Origin: Chlorobiota bacterium
GTDB lineage: Bacteria > Bacteroidota > Bacteroidia > JAADEI01
Length of the DNA: 64,000 nt
Assembly (NCBI GenBank): GCA_013153515.1
Contig: JAADEI010000102.1
Location: 2,721 to 66,720, forward strand
Direction of reading: 5' to 3'
Shown here one piece after another: positions 8,124 to 55,451 of the stretch; the first letter of the stretch is position 1, and the number at the start of each line of letters is the position of its first letter. The position numbers were made by a program, and so were the translations under genes. The notes beneath the pieces are model-generated. The model worked only from the letters and a program-made list of their open reading frames with translations. It searched no databases and was not told where the DNA came from.

Positions 8124-10052
8124 TTATTGCTCCTCTTTCTTATCCTCGTCCACCTCTTCGTATTCAACATCTTTCACACCGCCTTCTGTGGCTGCCTGCT
8201 CGGTGTTTGCCGCTTGTTGTGCCTCGGCGGTGTGTCCGGCTTGATAGAGGTGTTGGCTAGCTTGGTTCCACATGTTGAGTAGTTCATTAGTTAATTGCTC
8301 TGCCCTTTCAGCCTCTTTCTTTTCAAAAGCTTCCCTGATTTGTTTGACCAAGTCTTCCATTTTTTGCTTCAAATCGGCAGGGATCTTATCGCCCAGTTCT
8401 TTGAGCTGCTTCTCTGTTTGCCATGCCACTTGGTCAGCTTTGTTTAATTTCTCTATCTGTTCTCTGAGTTTCTTGTCTTGCTCGGCGTATTTTTGGGCTT
8501 CCTCCTTCATTCGTTTGATTTCTTCTTCTGTTAGTCCTGTGGAACCTTCAATGCGGATTGATTTTTCTTTTCCAGTTGCTTTATCTCTGGCGGTTACCTT
8601 TAGGATTCCGTCTGCGTCAATCTCAAAAGTCACTTCAATTTGAGGCACGCCCCGAGGAGCAGGCGGAATGCCTTCTAAGTAGAATCTGCCAAGGCTCCTG
8701 TTGTCCTTAGCCAATGGTCTTTCGCCTTGGAGGACATGCACTTCAACGGTTGTTTGGTGGTCCGTAGCGGTAGTGAACACTTCTGTTTTCTTAGTTGGAA
8801 TGGTTGTTCCCGCAGGGATAAGCACGGTCATCAAGCCCCCATACGTTTCAACGCCGAGAGACAGAGGTGTAACGTCAAGCAGGAGGATATCTTTGACGTC
8901 TCCCGAAAGGACTCCAGCTTGGATAGCTGCCCCCAATGCTACAACCTCATCTGGATTGATTCCTTTGTGAGGTTTCTTGCCGAAGAACTCTTCAACGGTT
9001 TTTTGGACAAGAGGAATTCTTGTGGAGCCTCCCACTAATATGACATCATCAATGTCGCTAACGGAGAGCTTAGCCTTGTCTAAGGCAATCTTCATGTGTT
9101 CAACGGTCTTCTGAATATAGGGTTCTATCATTCTTTCAAACTGAGACCTCGTTAGTTTTTTAACCAAATGCAGAGGTCTGCCCTCCTTAGCGGTTATGTA
9201 AGGCAGATTTATTTCTGTTTCATATTGGCTTGAAAGTTCAATTTTGGCTTTCTCAGCAGCTTCTTTCAATCTTTGAAGAGCCATTGGGTCCTTTCGCAAG
9301 TCAATGCCGTGTTCCTTTTGAAATTCATCAGCTAACCAATCAATTATTTCCCTGTCAAAATCATCGCCCCCTAAGTGTGTGTCGCCATGCGTTGCTAAGA
9401 CTTCATATACCCCTTCGCCAATGTCAAGAATTGAAATGTCAAATGTTCCGCCACCCAGGTCATAGACAGCAACCTTCTTTTCTTGATTGCCTTTGTCCAG
9501 CCCATAGGCAAGGGCTGCCGCAGTGGGCTCATTGAGAATTCTTCTTACATTAAAGCCTGCGATTTCCCCGGCTTCGCGAGTGGCTTTCCGTTGTGAGTCG
9601 TCAAAATAAGCGGGCACTGTGATTACTGCATCCGTAACGGGTTGACCCAAATAGTCCTCAGCGATTCTTTTAAGCTTTTGTAGGATGAAAGCGGAGATTT
9701 GCTGAGGAGTATATGTCTTATCATCTATTTTGATAAGCACTGTGTCGTTGGGACCTTGAACCACTTTATAAGGCACCCTTTTGATTTCGTCTTGAACTTC
9801 ACTGTAGCGTCTGCCCATGAATCTCTTGATGGAGAAAATAGTTCTTTCTGGGTTGAGGACTGCTTGTCTCTTAGCCGGATCCCCCACGATTATCTGTCCA
9901 TCTTCCTTGAATGCGACGACAGAAGGAGTAACATTCCTGCCTTCTTCGTTAGGGATGACGACAGGTTCCTTACCCTGCATTGCCGCCACTACTGAGTTGG
10001 TTGTTCCAAGGTCAATACCCACAATCCGTCCTTGTGTTTTGGTTTCTGCCAT
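8124..10052 (-). CDS. dnaK: molecular chaperone DnaK (Hsp70)
   Basis: Full-length Hsp70 ([18 protein letters not shown] and others). The track start at 10082 is probably a non-ATG upstream codon; the likely start is [20 protein letters not shown]. Confidence 0.95.
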
Positions 10053-13275: not shown

Positions 13276-13420
13276 TGCATTGTAACATTTGGTATGGTTT
13301 GTTAAGCCTGCAATAGGATGATAACAAAAATAGGATAAATATACTGCAAAGGCATAATGATAGTGTAGATGTAACTCTAAAAAGATAATCTAAAGATTAG
13401 AAAGTCAGTGTTTTAAAGAG

Positions 13421-13495
13421 GGTGGCTGACGGGACTCGAACCCGCGACCTCCAGGACCACAACCTGGCGCTCTAACCACCTGAGCTACAGCCACC
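13421..13495 (-). tRNA. tRNA-His (anticodon GTG) with genomically encoded G-1
   Basis: The reverse complement folds as a cloverleaf with an 8-bp acceptor stem (G-1:C73), D-arm GCTC/GAGC, anticodon arm CCAGG-TTGTGGT-CCTGG and T-arm GCGGG-TTCGAGT-CCCGT. CCA is not encoded. Confidence 0.9.
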
Positions 13496-29436: not shown

Positions 29437-30975
29437 ATGAGACCGCAGGTGTTAGTTGTTGATTTCGGCTCTCAATACACCCAGTTAATAGTCAGACGAG
29501 TCAGGGAAAATAATGTATATGCAGAACTTGTGTTACCAGAAAATATAAATCATTACCTTGAAAACGATAATTTGAAAGGGATAATTCTTTCAGGAAGCCC
29601 GTTCTCTGTGTATGATAAAGATGCACCGATTGTTAACACTAAGCAACTTGCTGAACAATTCCCTGTTTTGGGAATATGCTATGGTGCACAGCTAATAGCC
29701 TTTCAGTGGGGAGGGGTTGTTGGGAGGGGAGACACCAGAGAGTTCGGTCCAAGCATTATTAAGCAATTTGAGAAACAAGACCCATTTATTCATGGGATTC
29801 CTTTGCCATGGAAAGTTTGGATGTCTCATAGCGACGCCATAAAAAAACTTCCTGAAGGCTTTGAAGCTCTTGCCTACACCGAAAACGATATCCTCGCTAT
29901 ATTCAAACACAAGGATAAGGCTATATATGGAGTTCAATTTCATCCGGAAGTTGTTCACACTGAACACGGCTCCCATCTGCTCGCTCGGTTCCTTTTTGAC
30001 GTGTGTGGATGCGAACCAACATGGACACCTGCCGAATTCGTACAGGAACAAGAGGAGATAATAAGGAATCTGGTTGGTCCCGATGAACATGTTGTTATGG
30101 CGGTGTCCGGAGGAGTGGATTCATCAGTGGCTGCAACTATAATCCACCGGGCAGTGGGGCACAGATTCCATGGATTCTTTGTAGACACAGGCTTGATGAG
30201 GAAAGGCGAACCCACTGAAATAATTGAAGCATATAAACACATCGGACTTCCTGTTGAATTAATTGATGCGAGCAATGAGTTCCTCTCTGCATTACAGGAC
30301 GTTACAGACCCAGAGCAGAAACGCCGAATTATAGGACACAAATTTATTGAAGTCTTTGAACGGGAGGCAAGAAAGATAAAAGGGGCTAAGTGGTTAGGAC
30401 AGGGAACCATTTATCCTGATGTTATTGAATCAGCTGCTTCCGAAAGCAAGGCAGATAAAATAAAGTCTCACCATAATGTTGGGGGTTTACCAGAGAAGAT
30501 GAACCTCAGGCTTATTGAACCTTTGCGATTCCTGTTTAAGGACGAAGTGAGGAAAGTGGGTGAATATCTTGGACTTCCAGACACCATTTTGAAAAGGCAT
30601 CCATTCCCCGGTCCCGGACTGGCAATTAGAATAATCGGGGAAATAACTCCAGAGAAAGTTAAACTTCTTCAAGAGGCAGATGCCATATTCATTCAAATGC
30701 TCAGGGAACATGGGCTTTATGATTACGTATGGCAGGCAGGAGTCATATTATTACCAGTTAAGACAGTGGGCGTAATGGGAGATTCCAGAACATATCAATA
30801 TGCTGTTGCTCTGCGGGCTGTACTTTCAACAGATGGGATGACTGCCGACTGGGCTCGCCTACCTCACGAATTCCTTGCTCACGTCTCAAACCGCATAATA
30901 AATGAAATAGAAGGCATTAACAGAGTCGTTTATGATATAACTTCTAAACCACCGGGAACAATAGAATGGGAATGA
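29437..30975 (+). CDS. guaA: GMP synthase (glutamine-hydrolysing)
   Basis: 512 aa. GATase (GICYGAQL) plus the ATP-PPase SGGVDSSV motif and the C-terminal dimerisation domain. Confidence 0.95.
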   Translation: MRPQVLVVDFGSQYTQLIVRRVRENNVYAELVLPENINHYLENDNLKGIILSGSPFSVYDKDAPIVNTKQLAEQFPVLGICYGAQLIAFQWGGVVGRGDTREFGPSIIKQFEKQDPFIHGIPLPWKVWMSHSDAIKKLPEGFEALAYTENDILAIFKHKDKAIYGVQFHPEVVHTEHGSHLLARFLFDVCGCEPTWTPAEFVQEQEEIIRNLVGPDEHVVMAVSGGVDSSVAATIIHRAVGHRFHGFFVDTGLMRKGEPTEIIEAYKHIGLPVELIDASNEFLSALQDVTDPEQKRRIIGHKFIEVFEREARKIKGAKWLGQGTIYPDVIESAASESKADKIKSHHNVGGLPEKMNLRLIEPLRFLFKDEVRKVGEYLGLPDTILKRHPFPGPGLAIRIIGEITPEKVKLLQEADAIFIQMLREHGLYDYVWQAGVILLPVKTVGVMGDSRTYQYAVALRAVLSTDGMTADWARLPHEFLAHVSNRIINEIEGINRVVYDITSKPPGTIEWE

Positions 30976-32267: not shown

Positions 32268-33387
32268 TTATTCTTCTGATGAATTTGACTTCTGGGTCTC
32301 TTTATGTGCATCGCTAAGCAAATATGCCCTCAGGAAATCATCTATGTCGCCGTCTAATACGCTATCCACATCGCTTGTTTCATAACCAGTCCTCAAATCC
32401 TTGATTAGTTTGTATGGATAGAGTACATAGGACCTAATCTGATTGCCCCACTCTATTTTTTTCTTCTGTTTTTCTAATTCTTTCTGTTTTTCTCGTCTTT
32501 TCTGGAGTTCAAGATCATAAAGTTTTGACTTTAAAATTTTAAGAGCCAATTCTCTGTTTCTATGTTGAGATCTTTCCTGCTGACATTCTACAACTATGCC
32601 TGTTGGGATGTGTTTAACGCGAACCGCACTTTCGTTTTTGTTGACATGTTGTCCGCCAGGTCCACTTGCCCTAAAGGTATCCCATTCTAAATCTGCAGGA
32701 TTGACTTCAATCTCAATGGTATCATCAACTAAGGGGGACACGAACACTCCGGCGAAGGACGTGTGCCTCCTCTTGTTGGCGTCAAAAGGGGAGACCCTAA
32801 CTAGCCTGTGAACACCCGATTCACCCTTCAATTTCCCAAAGGCATAATCCCCTTCAAAGATGAGCGTCGCAGATTTTATCCCTGCCACTTCGCCCTTCTG
32901 CAGGTCGGCAATCTTAACTTTATAATTGTTCCGCTCACCCCAACGGGTATACATTCTCATAAGCATCTCTGCCCAGTCCTGACTCTCTGTTCCGCCGGCA
33001 CCGGGCTTTATGGTTAACACTGCACCAAGGGAGTCCTCTTCACTGGATAAAACAGTGTTCAATTCAAGTTCCTCAAGGGATCTAAGGGCTTGCTTATAGG
33101 CTTCCTCAACCTCCTGCTCGGAAAATTCGCCTTCATTAAACAATTCAAAAGCGATGCGTGCTTCCTCTATCTTCCCTTTCGTCTTGTTGTATTGTTCAAA
33201 AAGATTTTTCAATTGTCTGATTCTGGAATATACCTTCTGGGCTTCTTTGCGGTCGTTCCAGAAATCCGGACTTTCAGTTCGTTTCTCTAATTCCTTTAAC
33301 TCTCGTTCCTTCTCTGGTAAGTTAAAGAAAGTGATTTAGACGGTCCAACCTCTCTTCAAGCTCAAGGATGTCTGATTCCATAATCAT
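32268..33387 (-). CDS. prfB: peptide chain release factor 2, translated via programmed +1 ribosomal frameshift
   Basis: The main ORF 32268..33321 has SPF and GGQ motifs. The 21-codon frame-0 leader MIMESDILELEERLDRLNHFL runs 33387..33325 and ends at the in-frame stop 33322-33324. The shift site CTT TAA C continues in +1 as NLPEKERELKEL... A possible alternative start is the ATG at 33426. Confidence 0.85.
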
Positions 33388-33427
33388 CGCTTCGCTGTTT
33401 TCAAAAAGAAACGCAGGATGAGGCATT

Positions 33428-34162
33428 TCAGTTTCCGGGAATGAGCGATGGAGCAAAGTTTTGAATCAAAACCGTTATAATTAAGGTTATTGCTATCACT
33501 GCAATAAGAATAACTAAGAACACTGCTGGGCTAGCCTCCTTCGGCCTGAGTATCATAGTTAGACCCGTTGCAATAAGTAAAGTAGGCCAATATTTAAGCA
33601 ATTCTTCCCATTGGATATGTAGCAAGTCCATAACGTGAAGTTGCCACAAGACACCACCTGCCATCAAACCGAAACTTATGAAGAATCGCCACATCCCATA
33701 ACGTTGAGAGACCACCGAAGCAAGCAGGACTCCAAAACCTAAGATGGCTACTATGCCCGGCAAAGGAGTGTATTGGTTGAAAAACGGGGAAAGGTTGTGA
33801 ATCAAAAGCCACACACCAACCAAAACAAGAATCAACCCGTCTATCCAATGGGGATGCCTTTCTTTATATGTCAAATCGGAAGGCACGTTTATCCTTACTG
33901 TCGCCTCTTTTTTTGTTCCTTCCGAATTAGCTTCCTTAGAGAGATTTACGTTCATGTTCACTGGGGCAGGAGTCTCCAACTCTTCCTCTGGCATTAATAA
34001 CCAAAGAACGATATAAAGTACAACCCCTATTCCCTTAGCCAATGCCAAAACAATGAACAGAATCCTGATTAAAGTAGGGTCAATGTTTAACCATCTGGCT
34101 ATTCCCGCCGCTACCCCAGCTATGACCCTTTCCCGCTTAGGCCTAGTAATAGACACGCTCAT
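33428..34162 (-). CDS. PspC-domain membrane protein
   Basis: 244 aa. N-terminal PspC domain (RPKRERVIAGVAAGIARWLNIDPTLIRILFIVL) followed by further TM segments. Confidence 0.7.
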   Translation of the reverse strand: MSVSITRPKRERVIAGVAAGIARWLNIDPTLIRILFIVLALAKGIGVVLYIVLWLLMPEEELETPAPVNMNVNLSKEANSEGTKKEATVRINVPSDLTYKERHPHWIDGLILVLVGVWLLIHNLSPFFNQYTPLPGIVAILGFGVLLASVVSQRYGMWRFFISFGLMAGGVLWQLHVMDLLHIQWEELLKYWPTLLIATGLTMILRPKEASPAVFLVILIAVIAITLIITVLIQNFAPSLIPGN

Positions 34163-43899: not shown

Positions 43900-45399
43900 A
43901 TGTGGGAAATAGTTGATCTGGAAGATTATGATGCCTTTAATATAAGGCAGGAATTACAAGAGTTTTTGAGGGACGAAGGGTTAAGGCAATTGGACAGATG
44001 CACTTTGGGGGTTAGGGAAGCAGTGGTGAAATCAATTTATGCTAAGAATTTAACCGATAAACAGAAAGAAAACCTTGAACTGGTCAAGTCAGGAAATGCT
44101 TATGTAGTTACAGTTAGCCATCAACCGCATTTGTTAGGCGGTCCTGTTTTCGTGCTGTATAAGGCTTTGCAGGCGATAGCGTTGGCTGAGACGATAAGTG
44201 AAGAGACTGGTGAGCCAACAGTGCCCATATTCTGGGTGCACTCGGACGACCACGACTGGCAGGAATTAACAACAATAACAATTAAGAACAAAGAGTTTTC
44301 AGGGTTTAAGGAGAGAAGTGACCCATTTGGGTTTGCTGATGTGGACGATGAAGTGCGGGAATACATTCGGCAGGTTGTTAGCCACTTTCCCAATGCTAAA
44401 TTTATGGCTGATTTTTACCGACAAGGTCTTAGGTTGGCTGATGCCTTCGTTGATTTGATGAATTTTTTCCTTGGTGATACAGGAATTCTGTTCCTTGATT
44501 CCGGCTCGTCTGATGTGTGTAAGGAACTGATTCCATTCATAAAGGCTGATTTAATTGAAGATAGAATATATCCCATTGTTGCTAAGACTAATGAAGATTG
44601 GAGGTCAAAAGGCTGGAAACCAATCATAAACCCAATGAGAACAAACACTTTCTATATAGACAACTCAGGGAGAAGGGCTAAGGTCATCAGGAAAAGCGAT
44701 GATTCTTTTATTGTTGGGGATGCGGTTATGAACAAAGACGAACTTCTGGCGGAAATAGAGACCCATCCAGAAAAATTTAGTCCCGGAGTGGCTGTCCGAA
44801 TCCTCTGGCAAGAGCATCTTCTTAATTCGTGTGCGTTCACTGGCGGTTCAACAGAGATACTCTACTGGTATCAATTGATTCCGTTGTTTAGGGAGATGGG
44901 AATTAAGGTTCCGGCATTGTTTTTGAGACATAGCCTCTTTGTTGTTAGTGAAAAGATTTTTCCTGTGGTTGAGAGGCTTGGCGGATTCAAGGAGTTCGTT
45001 GTTTCGTGGGAGGAGTTGCAAGCCAAAGCAATTAAATCAGTCCTTCCAGAGTGGTTTCCTGAAGGGGAGTTGGTAAATAAATGTCGGGAACTGGAAAATC
45101 TTGTGGATTCCGTCAAGCGTGCTGATGTGCGGTCTTTCCTTGCAGGCAGACTGAGGAAACTGGCAAAACAGTGGAATAAAGAGGTTCGGAAGGCAAGAAA
45201 AATGTTGATTGGTCCTGAATTGGAGAGGATTAAGAGGGTTCATGAACAGTTAATGCCCTTGGGAAAGTGGCAGGAAAGAACGATTTCACTCTTGGAATTC
45301 GTTGATAGATACGGGACAGAGGGGGTTAGAGCCTTAATAACGGCTTATCCCAGAAATAAAGAATCCAAAGTAGCGTTTATAAAAAGAAAAGGAGAATGA
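43900..45399 (+). CDS. bshC: bacillithiol biosynthesis cysteine-adding enzyme BshC
   Basis: 499 aa. VSHQPHLLGGPVFVLYK...EPTVPIFWVHSDDHDWQEL aligns with B. subtilis BshC GGQQAGLLTGPLYTIHK...VPVIPIFWVAGEDHDLDEI. The later FSPGVAVRILWQEHLL...GGSTEILYW segment also matches. Confidence 0.85.
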   Translation: MWEIVDLEDYDAFNIRQELQEFLRDEGLRQLDRCTLGVREAVVKSIYAKNLTDKQKENLELVKSGNAYVVTVSHQPHLLGGPVFVLYKALQAIALAETISEETGEPTVPIFWVHSDDHDWQELTTITIKNKEFSGFKERSDPFGFADVDDEVREYIRQVVSHFPNAKFMADFYRQGLRLADAFVDLMNFFLGDTGILFLDSGSSDVCKELIPFIKADLIEDRIYPIVAKTNEDWRSKGWKPIINPMRTNTFYIDNSGRRAKVIRKSDDSFIVGDAVMNKDELLAEIETHPEKFSPGVAVRILWQEHLLNSCAFTGGSTEILYWYQLIPLFREMGIKVPALFLRHSLFVVSEKIFPVVERLGGFKEFVVSWEELQAKAIKSVLPEWFPEGELVNKCRELENLVDSVKRADVRSFLAGRLRKLAKQWNKEVRKARKMLIGPELERIKRVHEQLMPLGKWQERTISLLEFVDRYGTEGVRALITAYPRNKESKVAFIKRKGE

Positions 45400-47611: not shown

Positions 47612-50600
47612 ATGAAGAGGGGAGCACTAAAGATGTTAGGTCTGTTTGCACTGATGGTTCTAACCTATGTCTCTGCCTTTGCTCAAACAGGTGCAATTAA
47701 AGGGCGGGTGCTTGATGACCGAGGGGAGGGAGCCGTTGGCGCAGTTATTCAAGTAAAAAGAAATGGAGTATTAGTGAAAGGGTCTAGTATCTATGATCTT
47801 GGTGGATGGTTTATGATCAGAAATCTTGATCCTGGTGTGTATGATTTGGAGGTTACTTTGGCGGGTATGGCACCATATAAACTCACGGGAATTCAAGTTC
47901 CACCGGAAAAAGTTGTTGATGTTGGAACTATTAGGTTAACACCAAAGGCAAAAACACTTAAAGAAGCAATAGTGGTTGTTTATTCAAAACCCTTATTTAA
48001 AAAGGACCAAACAACTAGTCAGTTTACACTTAGCAAAGAAGAAATTGAAAAGTTATCTCCTCGTAATCCTGCAGACCTAGCGGCAACCAGTGCAAATGTT
48101 TTTCAGCGTGATGAGGGGTCCGAACTTAATGTTAAGGGGAGCCGAACGACCGGTAACGTGATGATTATTGACGGTATGAAGATATTTGGTAGTAATATTA
48201 ATTTACCCAAAGGAGCTATAGAACAAATCTCTACCATAACAGGCGGTGTGCCGGCTAAATACGGCGATGCAACAGGTGGAATTATTACTGTTACAACAAA
48301 AGGTCCGAGTGCAAACCCCGGATTTGGCTTTGAGGCTGTCACCTCTCAATTCCTTGATCCATATGGATACAACCTAGTCGGCGCTAGCTTTACTACTCCC
48401 TTGTTATGGGAGGAAGGCGTTAATGAAAAGGGAGAAAAAGTTAAGAAACGCCCAATTTTAGGAATGTTCTTTTCCGGAGAGTATAATTATCAAAAGGACT
48501 ACAGACCCTCATTCTATATATTTAAAATGAAGGATAGCGTATTTCAGGATGTTGTTAATGAACCTCTTATTAAGACTGAACAAGGTGCATTTATTAAAAA
48601 GGTGGAGACGCTTAGGAGGGATGCCTTTGAACCTATTAAATATCGCTTAAATGCGTATAGAAATAGGGTGTCTTTAAGCACTAAATTTGATTTTTCTCCT
48701 AAGGAGAATCTTAACATAACCTTAGGTGGTTTCTATATCAACGAATGGGGAAGGGCTTATGTTCATAGGTATTCTCTAATGAATTGGGAAAGACAACCTT
48801 GGACAAAAAATAGACAGTTTAATACTATGTTGCGATTGAGGCAAGAATTCCCTACAAAAGACACCGCAGCCATCATCAGAGACTTCTCTTATTCTATCCA
48901 ATTTGAGTACAGAAATCAGTTTTCAACAACAGCTGATTTCTATCATAGATATGAGCCATTTAATTATGGATATATAGGCAAATTTATGCAACGGGAAGTC
49001 CCCTTCTATTTCCTCTCAACAGATTCAGCCCTGTCAGCACTTGCCGGAAGACCTATCATAATTAATAATGTGTACTTGGGCTCTATCTATTTGATTGACA
49101 CATTCATTCCAGGAGGTTTGAATCCATATCTTGAAAACATTACCAAACAATATCTTGAAAATGCCGTTGGAGACCAATCAATAGGTTCTGTTATTAACGG
49201 ACCTGCTATCGCCAACGGCGAACGAACCCTCGCAGATTACACTTCTTATAGCATCTGGTTCATCCCGGGTCGTCAATATGGAGGGTATTCATTTAACACT
49301 AATTCACGATTCCGAGTTTGGTTTAATGGTGCATTTAGTATAATCCCGAAAAAAAAGAAGGGTCAAGGCAAAGAGAATCATCATAATATAGAGTTTGGAA
49401 TGGAATATGAGCAAGAGACCAGAAGGGGCTATTCAATTGGTGCTGTAAGCCTTTGGACATTGGCTCGCCTATATGTCAACAGGCATTTAGCGGAACTCAA
49501 CCTCTCTGATCCAATTCTTATCATTGATGGTCAACAATATCGCTTCAGTGAAATTAAAGATAAATTAATTGCAGGGGAAATCACGTTCGACCCCGAAAGC
49601 GATACTGTTTATTATGAGCCTCTTTATAGGGCTTCTGAACAAGCTTGGATTGATAAAAAACTCCGTGAAAAACTTGGGTTGCCAGTAGACGGAACAGACA
49701 ATATACCCGTGGATACACTATCACCGGATGTCTTCTCCCTGGATATGTTCGCACCCGATGAGTTGTGGTTGGAAGGAATCAACTCCCTAGTTTCATATTA
49801 TGGATATAACTACATCGGAAACATTGATAAAAACAAGGTTACATTTAAAGACTTCTGGACAGCAAAAGATGAAAATGGGAATTATCTCCGTCCAATCGCA
49901 CCATATAGACCGATCTACATGGCATTTTATGTTCAAGATAAATTCATGTATAGGGACTTGATATTCAATGTTGGTCTCCGGGTTGATAGGTTTGATGCTA
50001 ACCAGAAGGTTCTTAAAGATAAATACTTATTGCTTCCTGCTTATACCACCGGGGAGGTCGATCCTGCCCTGAATCCAAATGGTAAGCACCCTGATAACAT
50101 AAGTGATGACTACGTTGTTTATGTTGACAATGCTAAGGAACCGACTACTATATTAGGTTACAGAAAGGGTGATGAATGGTATGATGCCCAAGGACGCCTT
50201 ATTGAAGACCCCGGCGTTATAGCTGCTCAAACAGTTACTGGAACAATACAACCATATCTCAAAAATCCTGATATTACAGAAAAAGATCCAGAATATGATC
50301 CTGATCAAGTGTTTACCGATTACACCCCACAATGGACAATTATGCCCAGAATAGCATTCTCTTTCCCAATCTCTGATAAGGCAAACTTTTATGCTCACTA
50401 TGATGTTTTGACACAAAGACCAAGACAGGGAATACTTGCCACCCCAGATGAATTCTATTTCCTTAGAGATATAGCAGTAAACAATATAATTTCTAATCCA
50501 GCATTGAAACCAGAGAAAGTTATTGATTATGAAGTTGGCTTTAGGCAAAAAGTATCTGATAATGTTGCTATATCTATATCAGGCTTTTATAGAGAATTAA

Positions 50601-51418
50601 GAGACATGATTCAGGTTACTAGAGTTAATTATGCTTATCCAGTTACTTATAGAACCTTTGATAATTTAGATTTTGGAACAGTGAAGGGCATGACATTCAA
50701 GTTTGATATGCGTAGAATTCCGAATAAGTTACCTCTTCAGCTAGCAGTTAATTATACTCTTCAATTTGCACAGGGAACAGGTTCCAATGTGACCAGTCAA
50801 CTCGGTCTGATTAACTTTGGCGAACCAAACCTTAGGGTTATTATTCCTCTTGACTATGACCAACGACACACCATTGTTGTTATTGCAGATTACCGATATG
50901 GTGAGAAGCAAGGACCAACCTTTAAAGGAAAGCATATCTTTGAAAATGCCGGTGTCAACTTGTTGATCAATGCCGGTTCTGGAACACCGTTTACAGTAGA
51001 TGCTTTCCCGACCAGGTCAGCCGTCCAGATTGGTGTCAATGAACGCACATCTATTAAAGGTGGTGTTAACACAGCGAGGAAACCGTGGACATTGAGGATG
51101 GATCTGAAAATTGATAAAACATTTAAAGTTAAGGTGGGAACGAGGGAAATTGATGGGAAAACTGTTGACCTCAAACTTCCAATCAATGTTTACCTCTGGG
51201 TTCAGAACTTGCTCAATAACAGAAATGTCCTTGCAGTATGGAGGGCAACGGGTTCGCCTATAGATGATGGCTATCTCTCTTCCCCTGTCGGACAACAATA
51301 CGTCTCTCAACAGGTTGATCCCCAAGCTTTCGCAGATCAATACAGGCTTTACACAATGAATCCGTTTAACTTTGGGCAACCACGAAGAATAAGAATTGGC
51401 GTAATGTTAGGGTTTTAA
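47612..51418 (+). CDS. TonB-dependent-receptor-like outer membrane protein with N-terminal CarboxypepD_reg domain
   Basis: About 1270 aa from MKRGALKML. Signal peptide, CarboxypepD_reg (IKGRVLDD...), a plug-like segment (SPRNPADLAATSANVF...MIIDGMKI), a long barrel, and a C-terminal ...IGVMLGF ending in Phe. Confidence 0.7.
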   Translation: MKRGALKMLGLFALMVLTYVSAFAQTGAIKGRVLDDRGEGAVGAVIQVKRNGVLVKGSSIYDLGGWFMIRNLDPGVYDLEVTLAGMAPYKLTGIQVPPEKVVDVGTIRLTPKAKTLKEAIVVVYSKPLFKKDQTTSQFTLSKEEIEKLSPRNPADLAATSANVFQRDEGSELNVKGSRTTGNVMIIDGMKIFGSNINLPKGAIEQISTITGGVPAKYGDATGGIITVTTKGPSANPGFGFEAVTSQFLDPYGYNLVGASFTTPLLWEEGVNEKGEKVKKRPILGMFFSGEYNYQKDYRPSFYIFKMKDSVFQDVVNEPLIKTEQGAFIKKVETLRRDAFEPIKYRLNAYRNRVSLSTKFDFSPKENLNITLGGFYINEWGRAYVHRYSLMNWERQPWTKNRQFNTMLRLRQEFPTKDTAAIIRDFSYSIQFEYRNQFSTTADFYHRYEPFNYGYIGKFMQREVPFYFLSTDSALSALAGRPIIINNVYLGSIYLIDTFIPGGLNPYLENITKQYLENAVGDQSIGSVINGPAIANGERTLADYTSYSIWFIPGRQYGGYSFNTNSRFRVWFNGAFSIIPKKKKGQGKENHHNIEFGMEYEQETRRGYSIGAVSLWTLARLYVNRHLAELNLSDPILIIDGQQYRFSEIKDKLIAGEITFDPESDTVYYEPLYRASEQAWIDKKLREKLGLPVDGTDNIPVDTLSPDVFSLDMFAPDELWLEGINSLVSYYGYNYIGNIDKNKVTFKDFWTAKDENGNYLRPIAPYRPIYMAFYVQDKFMYRDLIFNVGLRVDRFDANQKVLKDKYLLLPAYTTGEVDPALNPNGKHPDNISDDYVVYVDNAKEPTTILGYRKGDEWYDAQGRLIEDPGVIAAQTVTGTIQPYLKNPDITEKDPEYDPDQVFTDYTPQWTIMPRIAFSFPISDKANFYAHYDVLTQRPRQGILATPDEFYFLRDIAVNNIISNPALKPEKVIDYEVGFRQKVSDNVAISISGFYRELRDMIQVTRVNYAYPVTYRTFDNLDFGTVKGMTFKFDMRRIPNKLPLQLAVNYTLQFAQGTGSNVTSQLGLINFGEPNLRVIIPLDYDQRHTIVVIADYRYGEKQGPTFKGKHIFENAGVNLLINAGSGTPFTVDAFPTRSAVQIGVNERTSIKGGVNTARKPWTLRMDLKIDKTFKVKVGTREIDGKTVDLKLPINVYLWVQNLLNNRNVLAVWRATGSPIDDGYLSSPVGQQYVSQQVDPQAFADQYRLYTMNPFNFGQPRRIRIGVMLGF

Positions 51419-51431
51419 AAATAGTTAAAAC

Positions 51432-54400
51432 ATGAAAGTAACGGAAAACATCACCGGGATGATTAGAAACATTTATAAAGGGGGGCTTGTCGCCACTATC
51501 CTCTTGGGCTTGGTCCTTCCAAATACTACCGATGCCCGAGAGATGATTGGTTATGAACGGGTTTCTAAGAACAGGAAGTCTGTAAAAAAGGGTTCTATCC
51601 GTGCCGCTGATTGTGATCCGGCTAGCTCACAAGTTGACCTTGATATAAACAACGTAAGAGCCCGAATTCTTGGCGGTGGTGACATGTGGTGGGACCTAGT
51701 GGGGGATGCTAAATATGAGGTTCCTAAGGGGTCTGGAAAACATGCAATGTTTGCCGCAGCTATATGGATAGGTGGTTTTGATCCCAGTGGTAATTTGCGA
51801 TTGGCTGCTCAGACCTACAGACAGAGCGGTAATGATTTCTGGCCCGGTCCCTTGCTAAATGGTACAATTGATAATCAAACATGTCGGGAATGGGACAAAC
51901 ACTTTAAAGTCCTTAGAAGTGAGATTGACGCTTTTCTTACTGATTATCAAGACAATGGCATTATTGACGAGCCGATTCCACTTTCAATACGAGAATGGCC
52001 TGCTATCGGCAATCCATTCACTACTCGTGATGATAAGTTTATAGGGAGACCATATGGCTTGGCACCTTTCGTTGATGTGGATGGTGACGGAATATACAAT
52101 CCTACTAAGGGAGATTATCCTGATGTTCCAGGCGATATGGCTATTTGGTGGGTCTATAATGATAAGGGGAATATCCATGGTGAAACTAATGCGGAACCCA
52201 TAGGTATCGAAATTCAAGCTCTTGCTTTCGCCTTCCAAACAAACGATGAAATTAATGACATGACCTTTTATAAATATATCTTAATTAACCATGCAACCAC
52301 AACTCTTGATAGTGCATATATAGCTCAGTGGGTTGATCCGGACCTTGGATGCTATCAAAATGATTATGTCGGATGTGATACTATTTTAAGCCTTGGTTTT
52401 GTATATAACGGAACCCTCCCTGATGAGGATTGTGGACCCAAGGGATATGCCCCTTTGAAACCCGCTGCCGGTACAGACTTCTTTAAAGGACCTTATGACC
52501 CAGACCAAGAAGATTATTTGGGCATGAGTGCATTCATTTACTTCAATAATGACTTCTCCGTTACCGGCAACCCCTCTGACGGTATCCACTTCTATAATTA
52601 CATGTCCGGTTCGTGGAAAGACGGTTCTCCTGTAACGTTTGGCGGTAATGGATATGGTGGCACTCAGAGAACGAACTACATGTTCCCTTCCGAGCCTGGA
52701 GATCAATCTGGTTGGTCGGAGTGTGTGGAGGGCAACCAGCCTGCCGACAGAAGATATGTTATGTCTTCCGGCCCATTTAGACTATTGCCGGGAGCTGTGA
52801 ATGAGGTTGTAATTGGTGCTGTCTGGGCAAACGATCCCAACTGGACATTGTGTTCTCCTTTGACCGTTCTAAAAGCCGCAGATGAGAAAGCACAGATTTT
52901 GTTTGACTTGAACTTCCAACTATTAGATGGACCGGAAGCACCCAACATGACAATTAGGGAGTTGGATAGAAAACTCGTTATCACTCTTTGGAACAGGAAA
53001 GGCTCCAATAATGAGAACGAAGATTTTATGATAGTTGATAAACTTAATATCACAGATATAAGGAAATTAGGTTCTCCCGATTCATTCTATAAGTTTGAAG
53101 GCTATCTTGTATATCAACTTGCATCTCCAGATGTTACACCTCGGGAATTAAATGACCCAACTAGAGCAAAACTTATCGCTCAGTTTGATGTGGAAAATGG
53201 TCTTACCACTCTTGTGAACTGGACATATGATAGGGAAAATAGAGCCTGGATTCCAGAAGTAAAAGTTCATGGTAAGGATAATGGCATCAAGCACACAATT
53301 GTAGTTACACGAGACGCTTTCGCAACAGGTGGTGCTAATATACTTATAAATAACAGACCCTATTACTTCATGGTTATCGCTTATGCCGCCAATAGATTTA
53401 GAAAATTTGTACCTGGAGATACATTACCAGGACAAACTATTGAATTCCTATCGGGCAGGAAAAATGTTAGGGTTTATACAGCCATACCTCATAAGCCAAT
53501 AACATATCAGTTTGGAACCAGATTGAATTCCACTTATGGAGATGGTCCTGTTGTTAAAAGATTGGCTGGGGGAGGAGCAGCGGGAGCAACCCTCCTATTC
53601 ACTGATGAAGCACATAATCTGTTAAGTGCCATTGAACCCACCTCTCCAGAAGCTGCAAAGTCTCAATATGCCTATTATCAACCCCGAACAGCACCCATAG
53701 ATGTTCAGGTCGTTGACCCCCTTAAGGTTGTCCCATCTACATATAGAGTTTATATCAGGCCTGCTGCGATGGCACTCACCGGTGTAGAAAATATACCTGT
53801 AAAGTCGGGTGATACAACGTTCTATATTTATGATGTTGATGCTAACCAAATCATTTATGTTGATCTCGTAGATAGTGTATATATTGGCTTTGATGGAACA
53901 AAAGATGTTTATGAGTACAAAGCAACTATTACGCGTTTGAATGAGTATGTTCTGTCAGACAGAGGGATAAGTTTGACATTTAAACAATATAAGCCGCTGA
54001 GGGAACAAATCCTTCAAGGAAAAGGCATAGTGGAGACATCGGTGGTGTTTGCCGATGTTAATCAGCAGTGGCTAACAGGAATTAATGATGATGATGCAAT
54101 TGAGTTTTTAGATTGGATTAAGGCTGGTAATACTCGTGGTAAGCATAATAAAAACACTGGCTTATTGGTAAGTGTGGGAGATTATGAATATGATTCAGAT
54201 CCTGCATTAGGAAGCGTGTACTTTGATTCGTTGGATGTGAAATTTATGGACCCACAAGCCGTATTTGAAAATGTTAATGTTAAATGGTTTGCTCCATATA
54301 TCCTTGCTAATGTAGATAGAACTATTGGGCTTGCTCCAGGCATTATGGGTAATGATCCAATAAGTTACTATCTCACAGACATTAATAAAATCTTGGATTT

Positions 54401-55451
54401 CTATACTGCCCGAAAAAGCTTTGATGATCTTTTCTCCTTTGAATTAGTTATAACTCCAGACAAAAATAAATGGAGCAAGGCTCCTGTTCTGGAAACAGGT
54501 GAGGACCCCTCCCTCACTGAAGGCGGAGCAATCCGATTCACCTTGCGAAGACATGCTGGCTTGAACCTTGATGGTACATATAGCACTTCTCCTCTTGATA
54601 CCGGAATGGGATACTTCCCTGGTTATGCAGTTAACCTTGAAACAGGCGAGAGAGTGATCATTCTATATGCTGAAAATTCAATAGAAGGTGCTCATAATGG
54701 TAGAGATTTGATTTGGAATCCGACGTCGACTATTATTGAAAGGGCGGGAAATAACGTGGATATAGTGGCTGGAGGAGAACATTACATTTATATAACCAAT
54801 TTGCCTTACACTAGCACATATCTTAATATCCTGAAGACAATATTGAAATCTGCTGCCGAGGGTTGGGACACAGTGCTTGCCAAGTATGTCCAATGGGTTG
54901 GTGTGCCCTTATTAGCTCGGGGATTTGACTGGAAACCAGTAAATGAGGGGCTTGTGCCCACGGAGGTTAGAATTAGATATGTGGTTTCTAAACCTTTCTA
55001 CAGGCTTGAGCAATCAGGAGCGATTAATGATGGCTATCCAGTTTATGAATTCTCTATGGCTGGATTTGAACCTATTATAGGTGATGATTCGGTAAAAAGT
55101 TCATTGCTGGACTCCATTAGAATTGTTCCTAATCCATATTACGGTTATTCAGAATATGAAAATAACAGATTAGATAATAGAATCAAGATTATAAACTTGC
55201 CACCTAAGGCAGAAATAGCAATCTATAGTATAGATGGAACGCTAATTAAGAACCTCTATTATGAATCGGTAGCAGATAACCTGTTGTCAGATGACGGGGA
55301 CGAGGGTGCCATTGAATGGGACATGACCAATAACGCTGGAATACCAATCTCCAGTGGGCTCTATCTAATTCACATAAAAGTGCCCGAGGTGGGGGATAAA
55401 ATACTTAAGTTCTTCGCTATTATGAGACCAGTGGACTTACAATCATTCTAA
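51432..55451 (+). CDS. large secreted protein with type IX secretion (T9SS) type-A-like C-terminal sorting domain
   Basis: 1339 aa. Probable signal peptide from MIRNIYKGGLVATILLGLVL. All six cysteines lie in the first 480 aa. The C-terminus IRIVPNPYYG...IKIINLPPKAEIAIYSIDGTLIKNL...SSGLYLIHIKV fits the Por_Secre_tail pattern. Confidence 0.55.
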   Translation: MKVTENITGMIRNIYKGGLVATILLGLVLPNTTDAREMIGYERVSKNRKSVKKGSIRAADCDPASSQVDLDINNVRARILGGGDMWWDLVGDAKYEVPKGSGKHAMFAAAIWIGGFDPSGNLRLAAQTYRQSGNDFWPGPLLNGTIDNQTCREWDKHFKVLRSEIDAFLTDYQDNGIIDEPIPLSIREWPAIGNPFTTRDDKFIGRPYGLAPFVDVDGDGIYNPTKGDYPDVPGDMAIWWVYNDKGNIHGETNAEPIGIEIQALAFAFQTNDEINDMTFYKYILINHATTTLDSAYIAQWVDPDLGCYQNDYVGCDTILSLGFVYNGTLPDEDCGPKGYAPLKPAAGTDFFKGPYDPDQEDYLGMSAFIYFNNDFSVTGNPSDGIHFYNYMSGSWKDGSPVTFGGNGYGGTQRTNYMFPSEPGDQSGWSECVEGNQPADRRYVMSSGPFRLLPGAVNEVVIGAVWANDPNWTLCSPLTVLKAADEKAQILFDLNFQLLDGPEAPNMTIRELDRKLVITLWNRKGSNNENEDFMIVDKLNITDIRKLGSPDSFYKFEGYLVYQLASPDVTPRELNDPTRAKLIAQFDVENGLTTLVNWTYDRENRAWIPEVKVHGKDNGIKHTIVVTRDAFATGGANILINNRPYYFMVIAYAANRFRKFVPGDTLPGQTIEFLSGRKNVRVYTAIPHKPITYQFGTRLNSTYGDGPVVKRLAGGGAAGATLLFTDEAHNLLSAIEPTSPEAAKSQYAYYQPRTAPIDVQVVDPLKVVPSTYRVYIRPAAMALTGVENIPVKSGDTTFYIYDVDANQIIYVDLVDSVYIGFDGTKDVYEYKATITRLNEYVLSDRGISLTFKQYKPLREQILQGKGIVETSVVFADVNQQWLTGINDDDAIEFLDWIKAGNTRGKHNKNTGLLVSVGDYEYDSDPALGSVYFDSLDVKFMDPQAVFENVNVKWFAPYILANVDRTIGLAPGIMGNDPISYYLTDINKILDFYTARKSFDDLFSFELVITPDKNKWSKAPVLETGEDPSLTEGGAIRFTLRRHAGLNLDGTYSTSPLDTGMGYFPGYAVNLETGERVIILYAENSIEGAHNGRDLIWNPTSTIIERAGNNVDIVAGGEHYIYITNLPYTSTYLNILKTILKSAAEGWDTVLAKYVQWVGVPLLARGFDWKPVNEGLVPTEVRIRYVVSKPFYRLEQSGAINDGYPVYEFSMAGFEPIIGDDSVKSSLLDSIRIVPNPYYGYSEYENNRLDNRIKIINLPPKAEIAIYSIDGTLIKNLYYESVADNLLSDDGDEGAIEWDMTNNAGIPISSGLYLIHIKVPEVGDKILKFFAIMRPVDLQSF

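Follow-up and report, generated by a model that had tools for sequence, protein, structure and literature searches.

The prfB gene of Chlorobiota bacterium (assembly GCA_013153515.1), encoding release factor RF2, is divided into a short leader and a body in the +1 frame. The switch between them lies at CTT TAA C, with TAA in place of the usual TGA and with no Shine-Dalgarno (SD) sequence upstream. The same combination is seen in eight further sequences that form an exclusive group with this one in the RF2 tree. It is very probable that we deal here with the usual prfB recoding site in an uncommon, inherited form, where +1 slippage would compete with termination, the feedback depending on RF2 and, to some extent, on RF1. 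The window denotes here the whole stretch of 64,000 nucleotides that was analysed (contig JAADEI010000102.1), and all positions are counted from its first letter.

Structure of the prfB frameshift site

The gene is located on the minus strand, together with the gene preceding it. The features are as follows.

33387-33385, minus strand: ATG of the prfB leader, read directly
33322..33387, minus strand: prfB ORF0, the 21-codon frame-0 leader (MIMESDILELEERLDRLNHFL) with its in-frame TAA, read directly; the leader length is that of most relatives
33336..33338, minus strand: TAA in the +1 frame, closing the body frame until three codons before the shift; invariant in all nine members of the TAA clade described below
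33331..33336, minus strand: AATCAC, not an SD sequence; relatives carry the SD-like AGGAGG at this spot, which precedes CTT by 3 nt
33321..33327, minus strand: shift heptamer CTT TAA C, with the Leu codon at 33327-33325, the stop at 33324-33322 and the weak-context +4 C at 33321
32268..33323, minus strand: prfB ORF1 in the +1 frame, 351 codons by translation, from AAC (Asn, 33323) to TAA (32270-32268)
33428..34162, minus strand: PspC-domain gene upstream of prfB (Pfam PspC, E = 7.8e-23), ending 40 nt before the prfB ATG

The letters around the shift are AAT CAC TTT CTT TAA C. A sequence-only reading of this DNA had recognised the gene as prfB and described the leader, the slippery CTT, the TAA, the continuation in the +1 frame and the L-N junction; its coordinates proved exact on re-reading, and the identity of the gene is borne out by the body. 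Namely, a gene-caller product (P0001) with 100% identity to that of the window has precomputed matches to PF03462 (PCRF) and PF00472 (RF-1), and the ORF1 translation has intact VSPFD (SPF) and GPGGQ (GGQ) motifs, so that all hallmarks of RF2 as a class I release factor are present. The identity of the window RF2 to many Bacteroidota RF2 proteins is 53-63%. The upstream PspC-domain gene is found at the same place in two related loci (L163 and L164), and its co-transcription with prfB is possible.

As regards the site itself, the window has the short frame-0 ORF, CUU before the stop, a stop readable by RF2 and C at +4; it has neither an SD-like sequence 3 nt before CUU nor the UGA of the stricter classical definition. 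Compared to the canonical site of the E. coli type (AGGGGG-UAU-CUU-UGA-C), it shares the short frame-0 leader, CUU-U, the +4 C and the RF2 body in the +1 frame, and the shift occupies the same position in the protein, with a leader ending in L followed by the first +1 codon. It differs in the UAA stop, the absence of an SD sequence 3 nt upstream, and the first +1 codon, which is AAC (Asn) and not the canonical GAC (Asp).

The NCBI annotation models the window gene as a full-length RF2 of 372 aa (P0121, NPA34624.1). However, this model joins the frames three codons too early, yielding ...RLN-TFF-NLPEK, whereas slippage at CUU predicts ...RLNHFL-NLPEK (33322-33340, minus strand). Other gene callers shorten such prfB genes: they give only products starting downstream, of 249-346 aa, for instance 314 aa from TTG at 33212. 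Such products are what would be expected if the gene were a pseudogene, or if an N-terminally truncated RF2 were made from an internal start with no frameshift. The coding signal around the site makes this very improbable. In the nine clade sequences, the column entropy upstream of CTT is 0.90, 0.61 and 1.13 at the first, second and third positions of frame 0, while downstream it is 1.44, 1.07 and 0.81, the maximum falling on the wobble (third) position of the +1 frame. Synonymous substitutions relative to three clade members (L001, L163 and L161) likewise favour frame 0 upstream of the site and frame +1 downstream of it. Thus, both the leader and the first approximately 37 residues past the site, including the conserved PDFWND, have evolved under purifying selection across the clade.

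The leader peptides of the clade, mostly of 21 codons, are recognisable homologues of the canonical ...RLEALRRYL leader. As the leader length is shared with most Bacteroidota relatives and the wobble phase switches at the site, the arrangement is homologous to the canonical one, not a chance match. The body frame contains no start codon between the shift site and 33212. This, together with the frame switch and the homologous leader, makes both a pseudogene and an internal start unlikely, and the intact SPF and GGQ motifs point the same way.

The use of stop codons also demands a working RF2, since TGA terminates 15 of the window's 43 long ORFs (35%), the others ending in TAA (22) or TAG (6). 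Examples of TGA-terminated genes are guaA (29437-30975) and a bshC-like ORF (43900-45399). Hence the genetic code is standard, with TGA serving as an ordinary stop, as had been noticed from the sequence at the outset.

Inheritance of the TAA codon

The CTT TAA C/G site is found at the homologous place in nine distinct sequences: the window, L001, L163/164, L161/162, L165/166, L167/168, L169, L170 and L171. The sequence T-CTT-TAA is invariant in all nine, and the +4 base is C in seven and G in two. The sites of the members other than the window and L001 are as follows.

L163/L164: AATCACTTT CTT TAA C
L161/L162: AATCACTAT CTT TAA C
L165/L166: ATTAACTAT CTT TAA C
L167/L168 and L169: AATCAGTTT CTT TAA C
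L170 and L171: AAGCACTTT CTT TAA G

The first +1 codon, AAC (Asn) in the window, is AAG (Lys) in L170 and L171. The closest sequence among the species representatives is L001, from the metagenome-assembled genome (MAG) 'Bacteroidetes bacterium Dive100_bin10.107', which has 84% DNA identity to the window over 3.1 kb and an identical site. The remaining members have 63-83% protein identity to the window, and pairwise identities of full-length RF2 inside the clade go down to 63%. The clade intermediates were recovered by a protein search followed by contig look-ups.

The sequence-only reading had raised the possibility of a G-to-A assembly error at a canonical CTT TGA C. A single base would suffice, were it misassembled or missequenced, and the source is a metagenome-derived contig. 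The comparison of prfB 5' regions excludes this explanation for practical purposes: TAA recurs in the eight other distinct sequences, which come from NCBI, ENA, JGI and Logan assemblies of differing samples and have diverged from the window to the extent given above, and its distribution in the RF2 tree is phylogenetically coherent.

The nine sequences having TAA and no SD form an exclusive group in a tree of 165 RF2 bodies built by neighbour joining. In L172, L173 and L174, the outgroups closest to the clade, CTT TGA comes after a canonical AGGAGG or GGGAGG. A second protein search, seeded with the most distant member, yielded no further members of the clade, the best candidates (L173 and L174) having TGA, and a scan of JGI metagenome contigs for closer relatives gave none above 63% identity. 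Given the exclusive grouping, the canonical outgroups and the lack of additional members in the search, TAA and the loss of the SD sequence are, as judged by sequence comparison, synapomorphies of a single small lineage.

Outside the clade TAA is exceptional. Among 160 prfB loci taken from GTDB representative genomes and JGI metagenomes, 131 have a frameshift site with CTT before the stop, TGA in 129 cases and TAA in two (L001 and L071); about 29 loci are in frame or otherwise have no site. Among the relatives outside the clade with a CTT-stop site, TGA is present in 133 of 134, and a strong SD sequence is retained at about 97% of these TGA sites. The single deviation is prfB of a Melioribacter sp. 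MAG (L071, JAOACD010000016.1, 2981-3011), which resembles the window in having CTT TAA at the homologous site, but differs from it by G at +4 and by a weak SD sequence, AGAGGT (-6.5 kcal/mol). As it falls outside the TAA clade in the RF2 tree, its TAA codon is, on the tree evidence, of independent origin.

The initial reading took UGA to be essentially invariant at prfB recoding sites. This agrees with a 2002 survey of 87 species, where CUU UGA C was always conserved, as the summary in PMC5289835 has it, but is outdated by a survey of 8160 motif-bearing genomes, with CTTTGA in 98.6%, CTTTAA in 1.4% and no TAG (Prince, Lin and Feaga, bioRxiv 10.1101/2024.09.24.614795). Hence the TAA variant has been recorded before, albeit rarely, and FSDB includes CUU UAA C among its +1 shift heptamers. 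In the same survey the TAA cases were scattered and not fixed in clades, which was read as poor tolerance of TAA, and RF2 autoregulation was argued to persist. The window site has the heptamer of that variant and would be expected to behave likewise, as RF2 also reads UAA; unlike it, TAA here is clade-wide, down to 63% RF2 identity, and is coupled to the loss of the SD sequence. The survey covered reference genomes, whereas the TAA lineage is known mainly from MAGs and metagenome contigs.

The lineage itself is deep and sparsely sampled, as follows from its DnaK (8124-10052, minus strand), which has 65-67% identity to any named Bacteroidia DnaK and exceeds 72% with only three database sequences. 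Submitters have labelled its members 'Chlorobi bacterium' or 'Bacteroidetes bacterium', the former being the NCBI label of the window contig. The gene content of the window fits a Bacteroidota-type organism, given the SusC-like receptors and the absence of SD sequences upstream of its long ORFs (see below). Two adjacent very large ORFs, of 1268 aa and 1339 aa, lie at 47612-55451 on the plus strand. The former contains CarboxypepD_reg and Plug domains and is SusC-like, and the latter has no Pfam match; an assignment of the pair as rpoB and rpoC was rejected on account of the SusC-like receptor.

Two other features of the alignment can be mentioned. The +1-frame TAA upstream of the shift stays in place even where the overlapping frame-0 codon has changed within the clade from CTA (Leu) to ATA (Ile). 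The corresponding triplet is TGA or TAA in most of the canonical relatives from the Bacteroidota (xTR AGG AGG). This stop may be selected, for example as a means to abort premature +1 slips, or it may be a by-product. Further, when the window is aligned with L001 (3.2 kb, 84.3% identity), the longest identical run, of 47 nt (33314-33360, minus strand), is centred on the frameshift site. It is only suggestive of nucleotide-level constraint, and we do not treat it as significant, since runs of 38-41 nt occur elsewhere in the alignment.

Absence of the Shine-Dalgarno sequence and of other stimulators

The SD strength was assessed as the predicted pairing of the 15 bases upstream of CTT with the anti-SD; the 3' tail of the organism's own 16S rRNA lies outside the window. 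The duplex energy is +1.2 kcal/mol for the window and from +1.8 to -0.1 kcal/mol in the TAA clade, none of the nine members having an upstream SD sequence. In 132 TGA-type relatives the median is -12.8 kcal/mol, and 128 of them are below -7. Two TGA-type relatives also have no SD sequence: L153 (+1.8 kcal/mol), whose upstream letters CUAAAACAAUAU resemble those of the TAA clade and which groups with Saprospiraceae-like sequences, and L058 (-3.3 kcal/mol).

The claim that no SD sequence precedes the shift is thus confirmed by AATCAC and its pairing energy. Its explanation as a trait of Bacteroidetes-type translation holds in part. On the one hand, a strong SD sequence within 20 nt of the first ATG was found in none of the 38 long ORFs of the window (0/38, against a background of 3%), indicating SD-independent initiation, as in Bacteroidia; by eye, the upstream regions of the window ORFs are A/T-rich. 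On the other hand, the 128 TGA-type relatives with a strong SD sequence at the prfB site belong nearly all to the Bacteroidota, and hence its loss is a second departure from the norm, in addition to TAA.

The SD sequence is known to have degenerated in several clades, which belong to the Flavobacteriales, Cytophagales and Ignavibacteriales (PMC10798248; Naeem et al., RNA 2024). The SD-less prfB site of Winogradskyella psychrotolerans shifts frame at a rate of about 7% in Flavobacterium johnsoniae, as does the native site; in F. johnsoniae the anti-SD is sequestered, and a role of stimulators downstream was ruled out by deletions (PMC10798248). The window site resembles these sites in the absence of an SD sequence before CUU-U-stop and in a host whose genes lack SD sequences, but the characterised SD-less sites keep UGA, whereas the window has UAA.

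No substitute for the SD sequence was seen in the window. RNAalifold applied to the nine clade sequences from -60 to +60 predicted no conserved pairs, and the window site folds no better than its shuffles (z = +0.75). Apart from a single tRNA, the window has no matches to Rfam elements; the tRNA is a tRNA-His (GTG) at 13420-13494 (minus strand), the only match by Rfam and ARAGORN. A distant SD candidate, GAGAGGU, located 20 nt upstream of CUU, was rejected: it coincides with a Glu-Arg codon pair, and many relatives share AGG at the Arg position. Its spacing was also judged wrong for +1 stimulation, by comparison with the 3-nt spacing at canonical sites.

Proposed release-factor feedback at a UAA stop

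From the conservation of the heptamer and of both frames we infer slippage at the heptamer in competition with termination. The anatomy matches the established prfB mechanism, in which peptidyl-tRNA-Leu slips while the A site holds a poorly recognised stop. With the tRNA at CUU and UAA in the A site, two outcomes would compete. Either a release factor, RF2 or RF1, would terminate the short peptide at UAA, or the tRNA would re-pair from CUU to UUU, AAC (Asn) would be read, and the 351-residue body would be made. The product of the slip would be the 372-aa RF2 with the junction ...NHFL-NLPEK... The shift would proceed without pairing between an SD sequence and the anti-SD, as at other SD-less sites of the Bacteroidota. 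Since both factors can terminate at UAA, the feedback should depend on RF2 with some contribution of RF1, whose gene lies outside the window, and competition from RF1 would blunt the part specific to RF2.

As a stop, UAA usually works more efficiently than UGA, the relevant comparison here being that of UAA-C with UGA-C. As the stronger stop is combined with the lack of any detected stimulator, be it an SD sequence or an RNA structure, the efficiency of the shift could be low. In general, C at +4 weakens termination (PMC5289835).

An alternative is that regulation has been rewired or relaxed, TGA having changed to TAA (and Asp to Asn) by near-neutral G-to-A drift, so that the site would provide a constitutive low-level shift or sense the total of RF1 and RF2, the frameshift being kept for no other reason than the difficulty of losing it. 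We regard this alternative as possible but rather unlikely; the sensing of total release-factor activity had been suggested in the initial reading and is a reasonable idea. The alternative agrees with the reading of UAA by both factors, with the joint occurrence of SD loss and TAA in all nine clade members, and with the apparently higher abundance of RF1 than RF2 in F. johnsoniae (PMC10798248). Moreover, the approximately 29 of 160 neighbouring loci that are in frame or have no site suggest that autoregulation is dispensable in the phylum. However, T-CTT-TAA and the +4 C or G are unchanged down to 63% RF2 identity, although deletion of a single base would restore an in-frame gene, and retention of the site despite such an easy escape argues for continued selection. 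Further, with TGA at the end of 35% of the long ORFs, RF2 is not a minor factor, and, as relayed in bioRxiv 10.1101/2024.09.24.614795, it is still the dominant terminator at UAA in most bacteria, so that autoregulation would largely persist. Hence a recoding site that retains competition between slippage and termination is the reading we prefer.

A more specific proposal is that the RF2 feedback has been stably re-tuned to an SD-free UAA sensor that tracks RF1 together with RF2 and has been selectively kept since the origin of the clade. This seems doubtful on the present comparison of sequences. If true, it would be a case from nature that contradicts the notion of TAA as a poorly tolerated stop that never becomes fixed in a clade.

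Earlier work has already described the TAA variant, SD-less sites and the mechanism. The sole new element is the fixation at the clade level combined with the loss of the SD sequence, and in this sense the result is incremental. At that, prfB is the textbook case of autoregulatory recoding, the logic of which is usually based on UGA being read only by RF2. The retention of CUU UAA C without an SD sequence down to 63% RF2 identity suggests that the circuit tolerates a doubly-read stop over long evolutionary time, and the TAA clade may serve as a natural sequence for gauging the interference of RF1 with the feedback.
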